From: an uncultured Planctomycetales bacterium
GTDB lineage: Bacteria > Planctomycetota > UBA1135
Length of the DNA: 64,000 nt
Assembly: GCA_964584805.1 (NCBI GenBank)
Contig: CAZPAY010000002.1
Span: forward strand, 80,311-144,310
Reading direction: 5' to 3'
Numbering within the stretch: the first letter of the stretch is position 1; every line of letters starts with the position of its first letter. The notes below the pieces were generated by a model that was not told where the DNA came from, did no database searches, and saw only the letters and a program-made list of their open reading frames with translations. Made by a program: the position numbers and the translations under genes. This document shows, one piece after another, positions 15,506 to 24,213 of the stretch.

Positions 15506-15523
15506 CCCGCGCGAATGCGCGGG
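15506..15523 (+). other. GC hairpin in the 5' leader, 13 nt upstream of the OFOR fusion-gene start
   Basis: CCCGCGC-GAAT-GCGCGGG forms a perfect 7-bp stem. No U-tract follows it. Confidence 0.4.
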
Positions 15524-15535
15524 CAAAAGCAACCC

Positions 15536-17752
15536 ATGGAAATCCGCATTCACGGACGAGGAGGTCAAGGTGGCGTCACAGGCGCTAAGATTTTGGCTCT
15601 CATTTACGCACGTCTTGGCAAAGATGTGCAGACATTTGGCGACTACTCTGGCGAGCGCTCCGGCGCCCCCGTGCGGGCTTATACCCGTGTGAGCGACGAG
15701 CCCATCACCAACCGAAACAAGGTTTATCACCCCGACCACCTGTTGGTTTTTGATGAATCTCTGCTTGGCCCCGCGGTTTTGGCGGGCGTCCCTAAGGGTG
15801 GGCATATTTTGATCAATACGGCGATGTCGATGGGCGATTTGCCCCCTGAATACGCCGCATTCAATGTTGGGCTGATCAACGCCACCGAAATCGCGCGCAA
15901 GCATGGCATCGGCACCAAATCGCTGGTGATTGTGAATACCACGATTGCGGGTGCCTATTGCAAACTCGTCGGTCTTGAGTTTTCTGAACTTGATGCGGCT
16001 TATAACGATATGGGTTTTGCCTCTAACCTTGTTTCGGCGCGTGAAGCGTTTGACACGGTTGAGATTTGCGAGACGGCCACTCCGCATGAGCATGCACCCG
16101 AAGACGATTTGTCTGCAGCGCAACTGCCGATGGTCATGGAGTTGGTCGATCATGTCACCAGCCCTGCGACTGGCTTGAAGACCGGCACCTGGTCGAGTCA
16201 GCGCCCAGCTTATTTGCAAAAACTTGCACCCTGCTCAGCGTTTTGCCCTGCCGGCAACGACGCGATTGGTTTTGTGCAAGCCATGGCAGCCAATGGTGGT
16301 GGTGCGGCGGAAGGCTCTGCCATTTTGAGCAAGTCGACTCCGCTCTCCGCGGTTTGCGGTCGCGTTTGCCCCGCACCTTGCATGGAAGGTTGTAACCGCG
16401 CCGAAAAAGATGGCACGGTTAATATCCGCGGCCTTGAGCGCTGGATTGCTGAGCAAAACCCAGTTGCTGTGCGCAAGGTCGAGCGTTTGGCGGACGCAAA
16501 ACGCATCGGCATCATCGGCGGGGGCCCCGCTGGTTTGAGCGCGGCTTATGAGCTGGCTAAGGCTGGCCACGAGGCGCATATTTTCGACACCGAAACCCAA
16601 TTGGGCGGCGTGTTGCGCACGGGCATCCCTGAATACCGTTTGCCGCGAGTGGCCCTTGACCGTGAGGTTGATGATGTGCTCGCGCTTGGCGTGACCGCGC
16701 ATTGCGGCGAGGCGATTGATGCCGCCCGCATGACTGAGTTGGCCAGCGAATACGACAGCGTCATCATCGCGGCCGGTTTGCAAAAGCTGCGCTCACTAGG
16801 TTTGCCCGGTGAAGATTCTGACAGTGTCGAGCAGGGCATCCGCTTTTTGCACCGCATCACGATGGGTGGTGGCGCGAGTCTAAGTGGGCATGTCGTCATC
16901 TTGGGTGGCGGTAACACCGCCATGGATTGTGCGCGCTCGGCCTATCGCGCTGGCGCTGACAAAGTGACCGTCGCGTATCGCCGCACCCACGCGGAGATGC
17001 CTGCCATCCGTGAAGAGATTCATGAGGCCGAGGCGGAAAATGTCGAGATGCTGATGCTGCGCGCGCCGAAAGGTTATGTCGTTGAAGGCGGCAAGTTGAC
17101 CGGCATCGAGCTTGAGATTCAAGAGCTTGGCGAGCCAGACGACAGCGGTCGGCGCTCCCCGCAAGGTACAGGCAAAATCGAAACGCTTGACTGCAATTAT
17201 GTTTTGCTCGCGCTTGGGCAGAGTATTGACACGGGCATTTTCCCCGCGGGTTGGGAGATGGCCGACGATCATCATGTCACGACGCCAAACGGCGCGGTGG
17301 TTTTTGGTGCCGGCGACATTTCCACCTGGGAAGGCACGGTGACGCACGCGATTGGCTCCGGTCGACGCGCCGCCGGTTTGGCTTTGAATGCGCTGGGTGT
17401 GAGTTACGAAACATTCGTGCGACCCGAGCGCGTGACGGCCGTCCCTGCGACGGCGATTCGGATGGATCACTTTTCTGCACGCGATATGAGTGCCGATCAA
17501 ATGCTGCATCCGAGCCCGTTGGCGGGGGATTACAGCGAAGTTAATGCGGGCATGGTTGATGCGAGTGAGGCCGACCGATGCTTCTCTTGCGGCAATTGCA
17601 CGAATTGCGATAACTGTCTTGTGTTCTGTCCGGAAGGCATCATCGCGCGACAAACTGAATACGGTTACGCCGTTGACAATGATTACTGTAAAGGTTGTGG
17701 CATCTGCGTTGAAGAATGCCCACGCGATTCCATGGAGATGTTCCAGCTATGA
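15536..17752 (+). CDS. Fusion protein: OFOR gamma module + GltD/NfnB-like FeS-FAD-NAD(P)H oxidoreductase + 2x[4Fe-4S] delta-like ferredoxin module
   Basis: The N-terminus MEIRIHGRGGQGGVTGAKIL is PorG-like. The middle has CSAFCPAG and CGRVCPAPCMEGCNR, then IGIIGGGPAGLSAAYELAKAG and VVILGGGNTAMDCARSAYRAG...VAYRR. The C-terminus has CFSCGNCTNCDNCLVFCP and YCKGCGICVEECP. Confidence 0.85.
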   Translation: MEIRIHGRGGQGGVTGAKILALIYARLGKDVQTFGDYSGERSGAPVRAYTRVSDEPITNRNKVYHPDHLLVFDESLLGPAVLAGVPKGGHILINTAMSMGDLPPEYAAFNVGLINATEIARKHGIGTKSLVIVNTTIAGAYCKLVGLEFSELDAAYNDMGFASNLVSAREAFDTVEICETATPHEHAPEDDLSAAQLPMVMELVDHVTSPATGLKTGTWSSQRPAYLQKLAPCSAFCPAGNDAIGFVQAMAANGGGAAEGSAILSKSTPLSAVCGRVCPAPCMEGCNRAEKDGTVNIRGLERWIAEQNPVAVRKVERLADAKRIGIIGGGPAGLSAAYELAKAGHEAHIFDTETQLGGVLRTGIPEYRLPRVALDREVDDVLALGVTAHCGEAIDAARMTELASEYDSVIIAAGLQKLRSLGLPGEDSDSVEQGIRFLHRITMGGGASLSGHVVILGGGNTAMDCARSAYRAGADKVTVAYRRTHAEMPAIREEIHEAEAENVEMLMLRAPKGYVVEGGKLTGIELEIQELGEPDDSGRRSPQGTGKIETLDCNYVLLALGQSIDTGIFPAGWEMADDHHVTTPNGAVVFGAGDISTWEGTVTHAIGSGRRAAGLALNALGVSYETFVRPERVTAVPATAIRMDHFSARDMSADQMLHPSPLAGDYSEVNAGMVDASEADRCFSCGNCTNCDNCLVFCPEGIIARQTEYGYAVDNDYCKGCGICVEECPRDSMEMFQL

Positions 17753-18906
17753 GCCGTCAATTAATTAGTGCTAATCACGCCGCCGCTGAGGCTGCAACCA
17801 TGGCCGCGCGCGCCAATAAAAATGCGCGAGGTTTTGCGAGTGGGATTTACCCCATTACCCCGCAGACGGAGTGCATCGAATATCTTGCCAAGCAAGAAAT
17901 CGAAAAGGGCTCGGTGGTGCGTGTCGAGAGTGAGCACAGCGCGATGGGCGTTTGCATTGGCGCGTCGATTTCGGGCGCACGCACTTTCACCGCTTCGGCT
18001 TCAAACGGTTTGTCGTATATGGTCGAAAACATCGCGACGGCTGGTTTTTACCGCTTGCCGATTTTGATGTATGCCGTAAACCGCACGCTGGGGCCACCTT
18101 GGAATATCTGGGTGGATCACGGCGATACTTTTCAGTTGCGCGATGCCGGTTGGATGCATGTTTACTGTGAAGACAATCAAGAAGTCATGGATAGCATTTT
18201 GTTTGCTTATCGCGTGATGGAAGACAAGCGCATCATGTTGCCCATGATGGTTTGCGCCGATGCATTTGTGTTGAGCCATACGATGATGATGACCGACATG
18301 CCGACGCAAGAGCAGGTGAATGAATTCTTGCCTGACTTGGATTTGCCCCACGCGATTGGGCTTGACCCCGTCACGATTGGCGGTCTTGACTTTCCGCGTG
18401 AGACGGAAGTCCACCGCCGTCAACACCAAGAGGCGTTTGATCGCGTGCCTGAGGTTTACGCCGAAGCGCAGGCTGAGTTTGAAAAGGTGTTCGGTCGGAA
18501 AATCCCTGATCGCGTGGTGCCCTACCTGATGGATGACGCGGAAATCGCGATTGTCTGCATCGGTACTTTCGCCAGCACGGTGAAGCCGGTTGTCGATAGG
18601 CTGCGGAAACAGGGCATTAAAGCCGGTTTGGTGCGTTTGCGGATGCTGCGCCCATTCCCGGAGCAAGAGATGACAGAGCTTCTCTCGGGCGTCGAGCGCA
18701 TTGGCGTGATGGACCGCGATATCTCACTCGGCATGGGTGGTGTGCTCTGGAGCGAAACTCGTGGTTGCGCGCCTGACTCCATCATGCAGAATTACATGAT
18801 TGGCCTTGGCGGCGGTGATGTCCGCGCCGGGCATATCGAAAACATTTTCACCGAGCTTCTTGAGCAAAAAGAATCAGGCAAGCCTCGCATCGTGGAGGTC
18901 GGATAG
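17749..18906 (+). CDS. 2-oxoacid:ferredoxin oxidoreductase alpha subunit (substrate unassigned)
   Basis: GIYPITPQTECIEYL, VESEHSAMGVCIGASISGARTFTASASNGL. ATGA overlap with the upstream gene. The track start at 17716 is an extension. Confidence 0.9.
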   Translation: MSRQLISANHAAAEAATMAARANKNARGFASGIYPITPQTECIEYLAKQEIEKGSVVRVESEHSAMGVCIGASISGARTFTASASNGLSYMVENIATAGFYRLPILMYAVNRTLGPPWNIWVDHGDTFQLRDAGWMHVYCEDNQEVMDSILFAYRVMEDKRIMLPMMVCADAFVLSHTMMMTDMPTQEQVNEFLPDLDLPHAIGLDPVTIGGLDFPRETEVHRRQHQEAFDRVPEVYAEAQAEFEKVFGRKIPDRVVPYLMDDAEIAIVCIGTFASTVKPVVDRLRKQGIKAGLVRLRMLRPFPEQEMTELLSGVERIGVMDRDISLGMGGVLWSETRGCAPDSIMQNYMIGLGGGDVRAGHIENIFTELLEQKESGKPRIVEVG

Positions 18907-19821
18907 ATGACTGCAAATGAACCAGTAATGGCGGGTCTTCCGCATTCTGAGCAAGATCGCTCGGAGCCTGTATTGCGCGCCGGCAACACGAATTGTGGTG
19001 GTTGCGGGATGTCAAACGGGCATCTATTCATGTCACGCGCTGCGGGCACAGAATTCAAAATTCAAATGGTAATTCCGGCTTGTTGCGGCATCGTGACGCC
19101 AGGGCAATTTCCGTTTTCCAATTACGGCGCTCCGGTTTTGGCTTCGACCTTTGGTGGAGCAGCTGCTTTTGCTTGTGGTCTCGCCGAAGTGGCCGCGCAA
19201 AACGACGACGGCACGCGCGTCGTGGTTTGGGCCGGCGATGGCGGCACCTATGACATTGGTTTCGCGACCATGTCGGCTGCGGCTGAGCGTAATGATGACA
19301 TTATGTATGTCTGTTACGACAATGAAATTTACGGCAACACGGGTGGTCAGCGGTCGTCCGCGACACCTGAGGGTGCGTCTACGACGACGACGGCAAAAGG
19401 AAAAGATGTCGGCAAAAAAGACATCATGGGCATTTTGGGTGCGCATGGTATTCCTTATGCTACGACAATTTCATTGGCCCACCCGGAAGATGCTATCCGT
19501 AAATTTAAGAAGGCTTTGGGTATGAAGGGTTTCCGATTCGTTCATATTCTTGCGCCATGCCCAACCGGCTGGAAATCTGAGCCCGGCGAGGGCATTGAGA
19601 TTGTGCGTTTGGGGATTAAGTCGGGGCTCTTCCCGATTTTCGAGATTGAAGATGGTTGGAAATACACCATCAATGTTGAGCCCGAAATGTGCGACGAGGC
19701 GCTGCAACAGTACCTCGACATGCAGGGTCGATTCCGCAAGGCCGGCGTGAGTGCTGAAAATATGCGGCCTGCAATTGACCGTTACTGGCGCCGACTTCGG
19801 ATGCTAGCCCGCGACGAATAA
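18907..19821 (+). CDS. 2-oxoacid:ferredoxin oxidoreductase beta (TPP-binding) subunit
   Basis: NCGGCGM, WAGDGGTYDIGFATMSAAAERNDDIMYVCYDNEIYGNTGGQRSSATP. Confidence 0.9.
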   Translation: MTANEPVMAGLPHSEQDRSEPVLRAGNTNCGGCGMSNGHLFMSRAAGTEFKIQMVIPACCGIVTPGQFPFSNYGAPVLASTFGGAAAFACGLAEVAAQNDDGTRVVVWAGDGGTYDIGFATMSAAAERNDDIMYVCYDNEIYGNTGGQRSSATPEGASTTTTAKGKDVGKKDIMGILGAHGIPYATTISLAHPEDAIRKFKKALGMKGFRFVHILAPCPTGWKSEPGEGIEIVRLGIKSGLFPIFEIEDGWKYTINVEPEMCDEALQQYLDMQGRFRKAGVSAENMRPAIDRYWRRLRMLARDE

Positions 19822-19833
19822 GGAGGTTTTCTT

Positions 19834-20073
19834 ATGTGTGAAAAAAATAAATCCCATTCAGTTCCTGAAACGAATGTGGAGCAAGAAGAGGTGTATTGCC
19901 AGCGATTGAAGCGACCGCTCGAAGTCAATGAGCATGGACGCTGTTTGTATTGCTACGGCGATAGTTCCGACATTTTGTCGGGTGATTATGAAATCTTTTG
20001 CGATTTCAACGCCGACGAAGACCCGATTTCGTTTGGCTTCCCGGCGGACAATATCCGCGATTTAGACGGCTAA
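19834..20073 (+). CDS. Small acidic Cys-containing protein, function unknown
   Basis: 79 aa. AGGAGG at 19821-19826 lies 7 nt upstream of the ATG. Cys residues sit at 2, 22, 37, 40 and 56. Confidence 0.55.
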   Translation: MCEKNKSHSVPETNVEQEEVYCQRLKRPLEVNEHGRCLYCYGDSSDILSGDYEIFCDFNADEDPISFGFPADNIRDLDG

Positions 20074-21531: not shown

Positions 21532-22170
21532 GTGGCGAAATTGGAAATGACAAGTCTTCCTGAAAAAGCTTTGAGCGCAGGTGTTGCACGCGTGCGTGAT
21601 CTTGATGTCCGGCCTACTTTGGCGCAGGGTATCGACCCGTTTACGAAAATCATGGCTGCTGCGGCTGAGCTTGACGCCGATGAGGCCTTACGCCTCATTG
21701 TGGGTTTTAAGCCAAAGCCGCTTTACCTTGTGATGCGTTCGCGTGGTTTCACAAGCAATACCGAGCAAAATGCCGACGGTGATTTTGAAGTTTTGTTTTG
21801 GAAGAAGCCTGGTGGGGGCGGTGGGTTATTCGGCAAATTGCTTGGCCGTCGTAAAGCTAAGGAAGGCGCGACAGTCGCACCGCCGTCGGCCGAGGCACGC
21901 GAGGCGATTGCTGCACGGGCGGCCGAAATGCAGCCCCCCGAATTTTTGGATGTGCGCGGCCTTGAGCCACCTGAGCCAATGATGCAGATTTTGGCCAAGC
22001 TCGATGAAATGGGGCCAACAAGTCAGCTGATGATTGATCACCACCGCGAGCCACTTTTGCTTTATGACAAGTTGAAAGAAAAAGGCTTTGCATCATCGGC
22101 AGAAGAAATCGAAGCGGGGCATTGGAAAATCCATGTCTTTCCCGCAAGTACAAAAGAGGAATCATCATGA
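21532..22170 (+). CDS. Tandem DUF2249 (TusA-fold-like) domain protein
   Basis: There are two repeats: LDVRPTLAQGIDPFTKIMAAAAELDADEALRLIVGFKPKPLY and LDVRGLEPPEPMMQILAKLDEMGPTSQLMIDHHREPLLLY. An alternative ATG is at 21547. Confidence 0.7.
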   Translation: MAKLEMTSLPEKALSAGVARVRDLDVRPTLAQGIDPFTKIMAAAAELDADEALRLIVGFKPKPLYLVMRSRGFTSNTEQNADGDFEVLFWKKPGGGGGLFGKLLGRRKAKEGATVAPPSAEAREAIAARAAEMQPPEFLDVRGLEPPEPMMQILAKLDEMGPTSQLMIDHHREPLLLYDKLKEKGFASSAEEIEAGHWKIHVFPASTKEESS

Positions 22171-23471
22171 GTAACACAGGTCTAGCCACGCAATTCGCCC
22201 CTCCCTACAAGTTGGTGAATACCCACTTTATCTTTGGCATTCTCGGCTTTGTGGTCGCGGCGTTGTTTCTGAATTACTTCTCGCCTGAATTGAGCGGGCA
22301 TTATTTGACACCGAAGTTTATTGGGCTGACGCACGCCTTCGTTTTCTTCTGGTTCTTGCCAGTTGTCTTCGGTGCGTTGCTGCAGATGTTGCCCGTTTTA
22401 TTTGAGGTGCCCGTGCGCGGTGTCAAGACGGCAGGCTTCGCGTTTGTGCTTTTGGCGATTGGTGGACCAGGTGTTTATTCGCATTTGGTAAATATGAATA
22501 CATCGGTTGGTCTTATTGCCACATCATCATTTGTTACGGTCTCTATTTTGCTTTATTGCGTGGTGTTTTTCACCACTCTCCGGCAGGCGAAAAAGATAGA
22601 TTTGACGGGGTGGCATGTCATTGCGGCACTTTCCTGTTTGGCCTTCGCCGCCATCGCAGGGCTTGTTTTAGCGTTTCATTTGCATAAACCGTTTCTGCCT
22701 TATGCGCATACGATGTTCTTGCGCGGTCATGCGCATTTGGCGGCATTTGGGTTCTTCGCATTCCTCGTTATGGGCGTTGCTTATAAGCTGACGGAAATGT
22801 TTTTGCTTGCTTACGGAGCACCGAAAACGGCAGGAAAAATATCACTCGCGTGCGGCACTTCGGGCCTGTCACTTTTGACCTTTGGGTTTTTCTGGGCAGA
22901 GCCAATGATGGGTATAACCTGGGCGGGCGACCTTGGCACAATCCTGTCGGGCTTGAGTGTGATTCTATTTGCCGTGCAAATACGCATCATTTTGAGCAAA
23001 CGCATGAAGCGCAAACTTGACGCTCCATGGCAACACACGATTGCAGCCGTCGTCTGGCTTTTGGTGGCTTTTGCACTTGCTGCAACGATGCGCTTGGGCG
23101 GGCACTCACCAGATGTCGAGCACGGTCTTGGCATTGCTTACGGCATCATTGGCCTCCTTGGTTTTGTCGGCTCCGTCATCATTGGACAGCTTTACAAAAT
23201 CGTGCCATTTTTGGTTTGGTTGCATAAATTCAGCCATCTTCTCGGCGGCGAGCGTCCTGTCAAGCCAGCTACTGAATTAATCAATAAAAAGGCCATGGAC
23301 CTTCTCTGGATGCCCTGGCATCTCGGTTTGATGTGTCTCGTTATCGGCGTGATGAGTGGCCAAGAAAATGCCGTCCGCGCGGGTAGTCTTTTGGTGTTGG
23401 CGGTTGCCGTTGGTCTCGCCTTCACTTTGTTTGGCGTTTATCGCGCCAAGCCTTACCAAGACGAATCATGA
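22167..23471 (+). CDS. 12-TM integral membrane protein with His motifs reminiscent of heme-copper oxidase subunit I (tentative)
   Basis: About 12 hydrophobic helices. THAFVFFWFLPVVFG and RGHAHLAAFGFF resemble the HCO helix motifs (HAFVMIFFMVMP / HPEVYILILPGFG, and HFH). ATGA overlap with the upstream gene. Confidence 0.6.
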   Translation: MSNTGLATQFAPPYKLVNTHFIFGILGFVVAALFLNYFSPELSGHYLTPKFIGLTHAFVFFWFLPVVFGALLQMLPVLFEVPVRGVKTAGFAFVLLAIGGPGVYSHLVNMNTSVGLIATSSFVTVSILLYCVVFFTTLRQAKKIDLTGWHVIAALSCLAFAAIAGLVLAFHLHKPFLPYAHTMFLRGHAHLAAFGFFAFLVMGVAYKLTEMFLLAYGAPKTAGKISLACGTSGLSLLTFGFFWAEPMMGITWAGDLGTILSGLSVILFAVQIRIILSKRMKRKLDAPWQHTIAAVVWLLVAFALAATMRLGGHSPDVEHGLGIAYGIIGLLGFVGSVIIGQLYKIVPFLVWLHKFSHLLGGERPVKPATELINKKAMDLLWMPWHLGLMCLVIGVMSGQENAVRAGSLLVLAVAVGLAFTLFGVYRAKPYQDES

Positions 23472-23836
23472 TTTCTCTCGACAAGCTTTCCCCGGACGAG
23501 CAGCGTTTGCTCGGGTCTCTCGAAACCGTTTTCGACCCAGAGACGGGTATTGGCGTTGTGGATATGGGCTTGATTTATGGCATCGCTCTCGATGCCGCAT
23601 CGGGTGGTTGCAAAGTCACGATGACTCTCACGACCCCTGCTTGCCCCATGGCCGACGCTCTGACCGATGGCGTCAAGCGGCGTTTGATTGCTCAAGATGG
23701 TGTCGATTCCGTTGAGGTCGACTTGACCTTTGAGCCAATGTGGTCTCCCGAAATGGTTTCCGAATCGGCCCGCACCAAGATGGGGATGGGCGGCGGCAAG
23801 CCGTCCGCTAAAGCTGACAAAGGGTTCTCGGTTTGA
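23468..23836 (+). CDS. DUF59 / MIP18-SufT-like metal-sulfur cluster assembly factor
   Basis: VFDPETGIGVVDMGLIYGI...MTLTTPACPMADAL...VEVDLTFEPMWSPEM. Confidence 0.85.
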   Translation: MISLDKLSPDEQRLLGSLETVFDPETGIGVVDMGLIYGIALDAASGGCKVTMTLTTPACPMADALTDGVKRRLIAQDGVDSVEVDLTFEPMWSPEMVSESARTKMGMGGGKPSAKADKGFSV

Positions 23837-24213
23837 GTTTTTCTGGCCTGTTGATGTTGGCGGCCGCCGGCGCGGCAGGCACTTTGGCGCGTTATGGCTT
23901 GAGCGCGCTGATGACAAGGCTGTTTGGTGCGGTATTCCCTTATGGCACGATGAGCGCCAATATGTTGGGCTGCTTGATTTTCGGCCTGGTGTGGGCGTTG
24001 GTGCGTGAGCGCGAATTACTGTCCGCCGAGACGGGCCTCGTTTTGATGGTCGGTTTTTTGGGTGCGTTTACGACATTTAGCGCATTTGCCAACGAGGGCG
24101 CCATGTTTCTTAAAAATGACCAGTGGGGGATGATGCTCGGTTATGTTTTATTAAGCAACATTTTGGGCATCGCCTGCGTATTTGGCGGCTCGTGGTTGGC
24201 TCGCTGGATTTAG
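23833..24213 (+). CDS. crcB: Fluoride ion channel CrcB/FluC
   Basis: GAAGTLARYGLS, FPYGTMSANMLGCLIFG and GFLGAFTTFSAF. The TTG start overlaps the upstream stop. Confidence 0.88.
   Translation: MSFSGLLMLAAAGAAGTLARYGLSALMTRLFGAVFPYGTMSANMLGCLIFGLVWALVRERELLSAETGLVLMVGFLGAFTTFSAFANEGAMFLKNDQWGMMLGYVLLSNILGIACVFGGSWLARWI

Follow-up and report, generated by a model that had tools for sequence, protein, structure and literature searches.

A stretch of 64,000 nucleotides from an uncultured marine Planctomycetales bacterium (contig CAZPAY010000002.1, positions 80,311 to 144,310; the whole stretch is called the window here, and positions are counted from its first letter) contains three adjoining genes, gene 1, alpha, and beta, that probably encode a 2-oxoacid:ferredoxin oxidoreductase (OFOR) of the Por/Vor class with a delta subunit remodeled into a reductase for NADP+, an enzyme that would function independently of ferredoxin. 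Together, the products of the three genes contain the alpha, beta, gamma, and (in split form) delta modules of a four-module OFOR of this class. Judged from its sequence, the middle of gene 1 is an iron-sulfur flavoprotein of the GltD/NfnB type with intact motifs for FAD and NADPH.

Results

The domain order of gene 1 proposed in an earlier note on this DNA, a gamma module, an FAD motif (GGGPAG), an NADPH motif (GGGNTAMD with YRR), and a PorD-like region with two [4Fe-4S] clusters, is borne out by comparisons with Pfam, NCBIfam, and PDB sequences and by structure prediction. The four Pfam domains that the note expected were all found, POR gamma at residues 9–159 (E 3.8e-25), Fer4_20 at 231–307 (2e-12), Pyr_redox_2 at 323–609 (1.6e-21), and a 4Fe-4S dicluster domain of the Fer4 family at 687–735. 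The gamma module scores 117.8 bits with TIGR02175 (PorC_KorC), above the cutoff of 81.1, and many GltD-family models of NCBIfam match the remainder, among which NF009410 (PRK12771) spans residues 207–736 with 461.7 bits. Matches to PDB sequences include the NfnL-like domains of StnC/NfnA (8oh5_C, 9bov_A, and 9n5u_A; E about 1e-70), NfnB/NfnL (4ylf_B and 5jca_L; E 1e-59 to 1e-61, 34–36% identity), GltD (1e-45), PorC (9bt4_E, 3e-24), and PorD (9bt4_G, 2e-8). An AlphaFold2 model generated from 73 homologues has a mean predicted local distance difference test score (pLDDT) of 83.6, with values below 50 in the linker at residues 190–219, and Foldseek superimposes the middle of the model on NfnL of Pyrococcus furiosus with a template modeling (TM) score of 0.76 and a root mean square deviation of 3.1 Å. 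The motifs of the flavoprotein body are located at residues 328–333 (GGGPAG), 457–464 (GGGNTAMD), and 481–483 (YRR), with an arginine of interest at position 368. In an alignment of 73 fused homologues (55–91% identity), the 16 Cys of the cluster motifs, Glu301, Arg368, GGGNTAxD, and YRR are invariant, and only Met463 of the GGGNTAMD motif varies.

It should be noted that the reading frame of gene 1 opens 7 codons upstream of the start used here, at 15515, and that the start giving 738 residues agrees with most homologues. Both of the in-frame ATG codons (15515 and 15536) are used in the annotation of database relatives, which are given as 738 or 745 residues long, and no clear Shine-Dalgarno sequence is present before either of them.

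The earlier note placed the delta module at the C terminus of gene 1. The ferredoxin core of delta is indeed found there, at residues 688–738, but an arm at residues 216–226 precedes the flavoprotein, so that delta is split. The motif KTGTWSSQRPAY, at residues 215–226 and directly ahead of the flavoprotein, resembles the N-terminal arm of PorD (TGSWR..RP). When residues 196–230 were spliced onto the core (688–738), the score with TIGR02179 (PorD_KorD) rose from 60.2 to 86.0 bits and the matched region of the profile grew from positions 25–76 to positions 8–76 of 78; the score with PorD_Arch rose likewise from 57.5 to 84.9 bits. The native C terminus of gene 1 scores 55–60 bits with TIGR02179, whose cutoff is 60.05, and delta is recognized by this measure only in the split form. 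Residues Thr216, Gly217, Trp219, and Pro224 of the arm are invariant in the fused homologues, and the arm is present in every Por/Vor-linked relative (arrangements A–C, see below) but absent from the KorAB-linked and NuoG-like homologues. Because the arm precedes and the core follows the flavoprotein, and because the arm is conserved and its splicing onto the core raises the PorD_KorD score, the flavoprotein is best described as an insertion within delta, located between the arm and the first Cys motif of this subunit.

The ligands of the two clusters in the flavoprotein also appear to be rearranged. In NfnB of Thermotoga maritima, the distal cluster is bound by Cys39, Cys42, Cys47, and Cys100 and the proximal cluster by Cys51, Cys90, Cys96, and Glu117 (Loffler et al. 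2020, PMC7596348). In an alignment with this protein, Cys47, Cys51, Cys90, Cys96, Cys100, and Glu117 correspond to Cys233, Cys237, Cys278, Cys282, Cys286, and Glu301 of gene 1, the equivalents of Cys39 and Cys42 (counted back from Cys233) are Ala and Gln, and the match of gene 1 to the Fer4_20 profile begins no earlier than position 30. A full set of eight ligands for two [4Fe-4S] clusters is thus not found in the canonical Fer4_20 order; there is a CxxC at 682/685 instead. The two Cys clusters of the earlier note are present, but they comprise six Cys rather than eight, and Cys682 and Cys685 appear to supply the two missing ligands of the distal cluster. These residues lie behind the flavoprotein body in the sequence YSEVNAG..EADRCFSCGN (residues 666–687, with EAxRCxxC at 678–685), which we take to be the counterpart of the usual N-terminal leader of GltD and NfnB (F.EV..G...EA.RC..C). 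Placing residues 650–685 ahead of residue 229 raised the Fer4_20 score from 52.5 to 72.6 bits and extended the match from profile positions 30–107 to 18–107; in the same permuted construct the scores with TIGR01316, TIGR01318, PRK12778, and TIGR01317 each increased by 8–19 bits, and their N-terminal matches were extended. The EAxRCxxC motif is retained in all types of homologue examined, all of which likewise have no N-terminal CxxC, and Glu678, Arg681, Cys682, and Cys685 are invariant in the fused homologues. Both this construct scan and that of the spliced delta subunit were run without a shuffled control. The NfnB-type cluster set of gene 1 is probably complete, with its ligands in permuted order, and the protein would hold four [4Fe-4S] clusters bound by 15 Cys and Glu301; the remaining invariant Cys, Cys274, is not a ligand. 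A further [4Fe-4S] cluster would be contributed by beta.

As described in the earlier note, alpha is coupled to gene 1 and adjoined by beta: the ATG of alpha at 17749 overlaps the TGA of gene 1 (ATGA), and the ATG of beta at 18907 directly abuts the TAG stop codon of alpha. Alpha matches PF01855 (1e-54) and PF17147 (1.4e-27), contains the sequence IYPITPQT, and has as its best PDB match PorA of Methanosarcina acetivorans (9bt4_B; 1.9e-68, 234 bits). Beta matches PF02775 (5.9e-22) and contains GDGG...NEIYGNTGGQ together with CGGC, PACC, and APCP, whose Cys residues are predicted to ligate the [4Fe-4S] cluster proximal to thiamine pyrophosphate (TPP). Assignment of the subunits to a specific PorABCD or VorABCD equivalog was rejected, as all scores lie under the NCBIfam cutoffs: alpha scores 362.6 bits with PorA_Arch (cutoff 550) and 294.3 with PRK08366 VorA (646), beta 265.9 with PorB (405), and gamma 118.1 with PRK08534 (225).

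The residue at the position of Glu301 divides the homologues. It is Glu throughout the Por/Vor-linked arrangements A–C and Lys in the KorAB-linked, NuoG-like, HdrA-like, and StnC/NfnA homologues. The YRR motif, which is retained in arrangements A–C and replaced by V-R-S in the KorAB-linked proteins, co-varies with this split. YRR binds the 2'-phosphate of NADP(H) in NfnB and separates NADP-specific from NAD-preferring forms among the DsrL proteins that have been assayed (PMC7596348); since residues 481–483 are conserved, we infer that gene 1 prefers NADP(H). Arg368 aligns with the Arg of NfnL that hydrogen-bonds to FAD at N5, but it does not discriminate between bifurcating and other enzymes because it is also present in the non-bifurcating StnC.

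A word-indexed protein search with gene 1 returned 4080 relatives, the best 120 of which are all 713–787 residues in length, have the same domain set, are 54–91% identical, and come mostly from metagenome-assembled genomes (MAGs) of Planctomycetota. When residues 1–320 (gamma plus the Fe-S domain) were compared with 1.84 billion cluster representatives, 59 matches were obtained at E ≤ 1e-30, and about 25–30 of these span both modules in one chain, with identities down to 33%. The databases hold no record of the exact protein of the window; its nearest relatives, 91% identical and from Planctomycetota MAGs, bear the annotation "FAD-dependent oxidoreductase" or that of a gamma/delta subunit. The taxonomic survey proposed in the earlier note thus finds the fusion to be common in uncultured Planctomycetota and to occur in other phyla as well.

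Four gene orders were distinguished in a survey that used one genome per species. In arrangement A, that of the window, the fused gamma-GltD-delta gene is followed by alpha and beta; it is found in Planctomycetota, a Myxococcales MAG, Eisenbacteria, Krumholzibacteriia, and Desulfocapsaceae. Arrangement B (Gemmatimonadota, one Planctomycetota MAG, and Akkermansiaceae) has the same order, gamma, GltD-delta, alpha, beta, with a stop codon of its own for gamma. Arrangement C, in the order gamma, alpha, beta, GltD-delta, is found in Desulfobacterales, Syntrophobacteraceae, and Verrucomicrobiota; in these operons the GltD-delta protein, of 550 residues, scores above the PRK12771 cutoff (630.5 versus 516 in locus L012), gamma is above the cutoff of the pyruvate-specific gamma equivalog (249.7 versus 225), and alpha and beta are closest to PorA and PorB. 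NF009410 (PRK12771), a family named only "NAD(P)-binding protein", has as its true members the standalone GltD-delta proteins whose genes immediately follow those of PorC/PorA/PorB (L012:4725-6377, L013, L015, and L051), which gives the family an evident functional context. Arrangement D, in which a GltD-ferredoxin protein precedes KorA (a gamma-alpha fusion) and KorB, is found in Variovorax, SAR86, Saprospiraceae, Pontiellaceae, and others (L058–L080); in one example (L064:5977-10666) KorA scores 577.8 bits with TIGR03710. This placement of a GltD-ferredoxin protein directly upstream of KorA/KorB is widespread in aerobes.

The chimera of GltD and delta always adjoins genes for alpha, beta, and gamma, in three gene orders and at least six phyla. 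The operons of arrangements A–C yielded no delta gene of their own, so that the role of delta must fall to the chimera, which is the constant unit of the system. The earlier note emphasized that gamma and delta modules flank the flavoprotein. This is so, but the gamma fusion is the least significant part of the design, as gamma is separate in related operons and the chimera of GltD with delta is constant; in the window, gamma was fused late and in a minor step that started from arrangement B, in keeping with the disordered linker.

The features of the operon are collected in Table 1. The small open reading frame that follows beta has four Cys (Cys22, Cys37, Cys40, and Cys56) and a DP[IV]SFGFP motif, and is found directly after beta in three Planctomycetota operons whose gene 1 homologues are 56–91% identical to that of the window (L081, 89% identical; L007, 41%; L082, 37%). 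It is absent from L002, L003, L006, and the arrangement B loci checked, and it has no match in Pfam or the PDB. It is confined to a sub-clade of Planctomycetota and may be an accessory gene of the operon, zinc-ribbon or rubredoxin-like. The operon is flanked by a divergent gene for a beta-lactamase-fold hydrolase and a convergent gene for a major facilitator superfamily transporter. These and the other neighbors are unrelated to it: DUF2249, COX1-like, inositol-phosphate synthase, FAD oxidase, and DSP phosphatase proteins, and an acyl-CoA synthetase-like gene. No gene for a ferredoxin, an NfnA-like protein, or a pyruvate dehydrogenase lies beside the operon in the window. A cluster at 21532–24213 on the forward strand, encoding a DUF2249/TusA-like protein, the COX1-like membrane protein (a distant match of 32 bits, below the Pfam cutoff), an FeS_assembly_P-type protein, and CrcB, has a syntenic counterpart in L081.

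Table 1. Features of the operon, with positions in the window
Feature	Position	Strand	Extent	Basis or content
Gene 1	15536-17752	+	738 residues	Gamma, linker, delta N-terminal arm, NfnB/GltD-like Fe-S flavoprotein, apparently relocated CxxC segment, delta ferredoxin core
Gamma module (PorC/PorG, CoA-binding domain III)	15536-16090	+	residues 1-185	PF01558 at 9-159
Delta-subunit N-terminal arm	16163-16225	+	residues 210-230	TGTWSSQRPAY at 216-226
NfnB/GltD-type Fe-S domain (Fer4_20)	16226-16456	+	residues 231-307	PF14691; C233, C237, C278, C282, C286, E301, and non-ligand C274
FAD and NADPH Rossmann body	16493-17395	+	residues 320-620	PF07992; alignments with NfnB/NfnL/GltD
Putative relocated GltD/NfnB leader-like segment	17519-17596	+	residues 662-687	YSEVNAG...EADRCFSCGN; construct scans, conservation
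Delta ferredoxin core (2x[4Fe-4S])	17597-17752	+	residues 688-738: CTNCDNCLVFCP ... CKGCGICVEECP, then stop codon	Fer4-family matches, PorD 9bt4_G, 8 invariant Cys
Alpha subunit	17749-18906	+	385 residues	POR_N and PFOR_II, YPITP motif
Beta subunit	18907-19821	+	304 residues	TPP_enzyme_C, GDG...NxxxGNTGGQ, Cys predicted for TPP-proximal [4Fe-4S]
Small four-Cys open reading frame	19834-20073	+	79 residues	AGGAGG Shine-Dalgarno, 12 nt past beta

Discussion

The sequences themselves show the domains, the conserved ligand residues, and the linkage of the genes in one operon; from this architecture we infer in what order the clusters are arranged, which acceptor and substrate are used, and in which direction the reaction runs. 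Alpha and beta would bind TPP together with a 2-oxoacid, in all likelihood pyruvate, with branched-chain 2-oxoacids remaining candidates, and would decarboxylate it with CoA held by the gamma domain. Two electrons would leave TPP singly and pass through the [4Fe-4S] cluster of beta to the two clusters of the delta core, from there to the distal cluster (Cys233, Cys286, Cys682, and Cys685) and the proximal cluster (Cys237, Cys278, Cys282, and Glu301), and finally to FAD, which would gather both electrons and pass a hydride to NADP+ bound at YRR. The delta arm and delta core would dock the flavoprotein onto alpha and beta, gamma being only tethered through its flexible linker. The net reaction would be 2-oxoacid + CoA + NADP+ → acyl-CoA + CO2 + NADPH, an exergonic and essentially irreversible conversion in which soluble ferredoxin has no part. 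The potentials of the 2-oxoacid couple and of NADP(H) are about −500 mV and −320 mV (textbook values), and because the difference of about 180 mV favors the forward direction, a simple reverse reaction, which the earlier note had allowed for, is thermodynamically unlikely. The two construct scans (86.0 versus 60.2 bits for the spliced delta subunit and 72.6 versus 52.5 bits for the permuted Fe-S domain) support the proposed wiring. A homologous domain in StnC (residues 102–565) also holds two [4Fe-4S] clusters and, with no bifurcation, carries single electrons between NADPH/FAD and a chain of Fe-S clusters (PMC10482914).

Among characterized systems, one of the closest to the proposed enzyme is the 2-oxoglutarate:NADP+ oxidoreductase (KGOR) of Azoarcus evansii, which Ebenau-Jehle, Boll, and Fuchs reportedly purified in 2003 as a three-subunit FAD/Fe-S/TPP enzyme specific for NADP+. 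The layout of arrangement D presumably matches this composition. Like the proposed enzyme of the window, KGOR is an OFOR that reportedly carries FAD and reduces NADP+ by means of an extra subunit. A KGOR subunit has been placed in the GltD/NfnB/DsrL phylogeny, beside NsoC (Kronen et al. 2023, PMC10134865). The KorAB-linked flavoproteins also resemble gene 1 in having no N-terminal CxxC and in having the EAxRCxxC motif and a C-terminal dicluster domain. However, KGOR belongs to the two-subunit KorAB class (a gamma-alpha fusion plus beta, with no delta), whereas the enzyme of the window is of the Por/Vor class, and the KorAB-linked flavoproteins have no PorD arm, have Lys in place of Glu301 and V-R-S in place of YRR, and are only about 29–30% identical to gene 1. 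Alpha of the window scores 102.9 bits with TIGR03710, far from the cutoff of 482.75 (KorA of L064 scores 577.8), and membership of the KGOR type was rejected on these grounds. By analogy, the enzyme of the window would work like KGOR, but it lies outside the KGOR family.

In the pyruvate:NADP+ oxidoreductase of Euglena and Cryptosporidium, an OFOR and an NADPH-flavin module are linked covalently. The earlier note drew an analogy with this eukaryotic enzyme, which is fair in that the logic is the same and the reductase module is different: the eukaryotic enzyme is a single-chain pyruvate:ferredoxin oxidoreductase with an unrelated FMN/FAD domain of the cytochrome P450 reductase type, joined at the C terminus rather than inserted in delta. 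Another precedent is phenylglyoxylate:NAD+ oxidoreductase (PadEFGHI), which is said to be a multi-subunit OFOR of the Por/Vor class with separate gamma, delta, alpha, and beta, an added flavoprotein subunit, and NAD+ as acceptor. The subunits of the window do not belong to this family (PadE, 87.6 bits against a cutoff of 300; PadG, 246.7 against 700; PadI, 136.3 against 700). The best 25 NCBIfam matches to the GltD-like part of gene 1 include no model of a Pad flavoprotein subunit, so that a flavoprotein of a different type may be present in Pad. PadEFGHI, reportedly described by Hirsch, Schagger, and Fuchs in 1998, is thus a second purified OFOR that reduces NAD(P)+.

Three groups of flavoproteins also resemble gene 1 in architecture. 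The NF009410 (PRK12771) protein shares with it the PorD arm, an NfnB-like flavoprotein with Glu and YRR, the RCxxC motif, and the PorD core, but is not fused to gamma and occurs in another gene order; gene 1 is 34–38% identical to it and scores below the family cutoff. NfnB/NfnL (4ylf_B and 5jca_L) has the same fold (TM 0.75–0.76), FAD, NADPH bound with YRR, and a Glu-ligated proximal and a distal [4Fe-4S] cluster. Gene 1 differs in having no NfnA/NfnS partner, in the apparent C-terminal relocation of the first two distal Cys, and in the embedding of the module in the delta of an OFOR, because of which bifurcation would not be expected. Nfn membership was rejected since neither the operon (gene 1, alpha, beta, and the 79-residue open reading frame) nor the related loci encode NfnA/NfnS. 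DsrL has, like gene 1, an Fe-S domain, an FAD/NAD(P) body, a linker, and a C-terminal ferredoxin domain with two [4Fe-4S] clusters, and its NADP-specific forms have YRR, but gene 1 is unlike DsrL in having no dsrAB linkage and in having a PorD arm and the gamma fusion. Direct linkage to POR-type alpha and beta genes is itself a criterion for exclusion from DsrL (PMC7596348), and membership was rejected accordingly. The occurrence of POR/VOR-linked DsrL-like genes had been remarked upon by Loffler et al. (PMC7596348), but the linkage was not pursued. The statement in the earlier note that no biochemical characterization was known is therefore too strong, with KGOR and the phenylglyoxylate enzyme as precedents and the linkage already on record. 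In our literature search, neither the Por/Vor-linked chimera nor the split delta, the relocated CxxC, or the gamma fusion was found to have been described or assayed, and the reviews checked contain no OFOR fusions. Thus, the principle of a ferredoxin-independent, NAD(P)+-linked OFOR is known from two purified bacterial enzymes, and the construction found in the window has not previously been studied.

Several points weigh against an NADP+-reducing OFOR of the kind proposed here. The literature search found no biochemical data for any member of the Por/Vor-linked group. The assignment of Cys682 and Cys685 to the distal cluster draws on motif conservation and on the two uncontrolled construct scans, and the ferredoxin core is modeled at low confidence (pLDDT 50–66). 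Because none of the alpha, beta, and gamma scores reaches the cutoff of an NCBIfam equivalog, the substrate assignment is ambiguous. The clusters of delta may also be reachable by soluble ferredoxin. In addition, gene 1 retains Glu at the proximal cluster, as does the bifurcating NfnL, in which this cluster has a very low potential; if electrons simply ran downhill to FAD, a closer likeness to the Lys-type, non-bifurcating StnC/NfnA might be anticipated.

An unlikely alternative, compatible with an NADP+ reductase rather than exclusive of it, is that the enzyme is a ferredoxin-reducing OFOR with a built-in ferredoxin:NADP+ oxidoreductase, in which electrons would be divided according to need between NADP+ and a soluble ferredoxin docked at an exposed cluster of the delta core; when the 2-oxoacid is absent, the module could bring the pools of NADPH and ferredoxin into equilibrium. 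As a dicluster domain, the delta core is of the normal PorD type, the place at which ferredoxin docks in classical OFORs, and Ebenau-Jehle et al. reportedly state in their 2003 abstract that KGOR can deliver electrons to both ferredoxin and NADP+. The homologous modules of DsrL are, moreover, NADPH:acceptor oxidoreductases (PMC7596348). However, no ferredoxin gene is present in or beside the operon, either in the window or in L081 and L082, and the delta core is flanked covalently by segments of the flavoprotein, which may bury its distal cluster. With regard to the substrate, we lean toward pyruvate with modest confidence, and an enzyme for branched-chain, aryl, or other 2-oxoacids, or for oxalate or glyoxylate, serving as an NADP+-linked counterpart of VOR in amino acid catabolism, is a tentative and less probable choice. 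The latter would agree with the higher score of beta for the "VorB-type" model PRK11864 (297.7 bits) than for PorB (265.9), both below their cutoffs, with the nearly equal scores of alpha for PorA (301) and VorA (294), also below cutoffs, and with matches to subunits of oxalate oxidoreductase. On the other hand, the best models and structure for alpha belong to enzymes that act on pyruvate (362.6 bits with PorA_Arch and 234 bits with M. acetivorans PorA), and the relatives in arrangement C are more clearly of the pyruvate type (gamma, 249.7 against a cutoff of 225; alpha and beta nearest PorA/PorB). Oxalate oxidoreductase is CoA-independent, and the retention of the gamma domain in gene 1 argues against oxalate.

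An NfnL-like FAD site could in principle bifurcate electrons from NADPH, sending a low-potential electron through the chain of clusters to the reductive carboxylation of acyl-CoA, as in a 2-oxoacid synthase, and the other to some high-potential partner. Glu301 is invariant in all Por/Vor-linked forms, with Lys at this position in the KorAB-linked proteins and in the non-bifurcating StnC/NfnA, and Arg368 corresponds to the Arg of NfnL at N5 of FAD. Nevertheless, none of the operons examined encodes an NfnA/NfnS-like protein or any other second path for electrons, the Arg is shared with StnC and does not discriminate, and NADPH-driven carboxylation without coupling would be uphill by about 180 mV. 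Glu is a ligand of the proximal cluster in bifurcating NfnL and is replaced by Lys in non-bifurcating StnC/NfnA (PMC10482914, PMC12018979), but the functional meaning of this difference is "far from clear" (Xiao et al. 2025, PMC12018979), and we regard reverse, bifurcating operation as very improbable. A broader proposal, that the GltD-delta chimera is a distinct multi-phylum enzyme class in which a permuted, Glu-ligated flavoprotein of the NfnL type within an OFOR delta uses its flavin site to gate or bifurcate electrons (from 2-oxoacid oxidation to NADP+ and a second acceptor, or in NADPH-assisted synthesis of 2-oxoacids), and that it is the main pyruvate-oxidizing and NADPH-generating enzyme of many uncultured marine Planctomycetota, is speculative and has little probability as a whole.

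The construction of gene 1 is a clear case of the insertion of a domain combined with the permutation of a cluster-binding segment, and the division between Glu in the Por/Vor-linked proteins and Lys in the KorAB-linked and StnC-type proteins constitutes a natural experiment bearing on a point that is regarded as unresolved in the Nfn literature. If the enzyme is an NADP+-reducing OFOR, its operon would be a natural single-operon scaffold for the regeneration of NADPH from pyruvate. Many uncultured Planctomycetota and, with unfused forms, Gemmatimonadota, Verrucomicrobiota, Myxococcota, and Desulfobacterota would then produce acyl-CoA and NADPH in a single OFOR step that is independent of ferredoxin, and OFOR genes in metagenomes, in which a sign of ferredoxin-based anaerobic metabolism or of CO2 fixation is usually seen, would need to be read differently.

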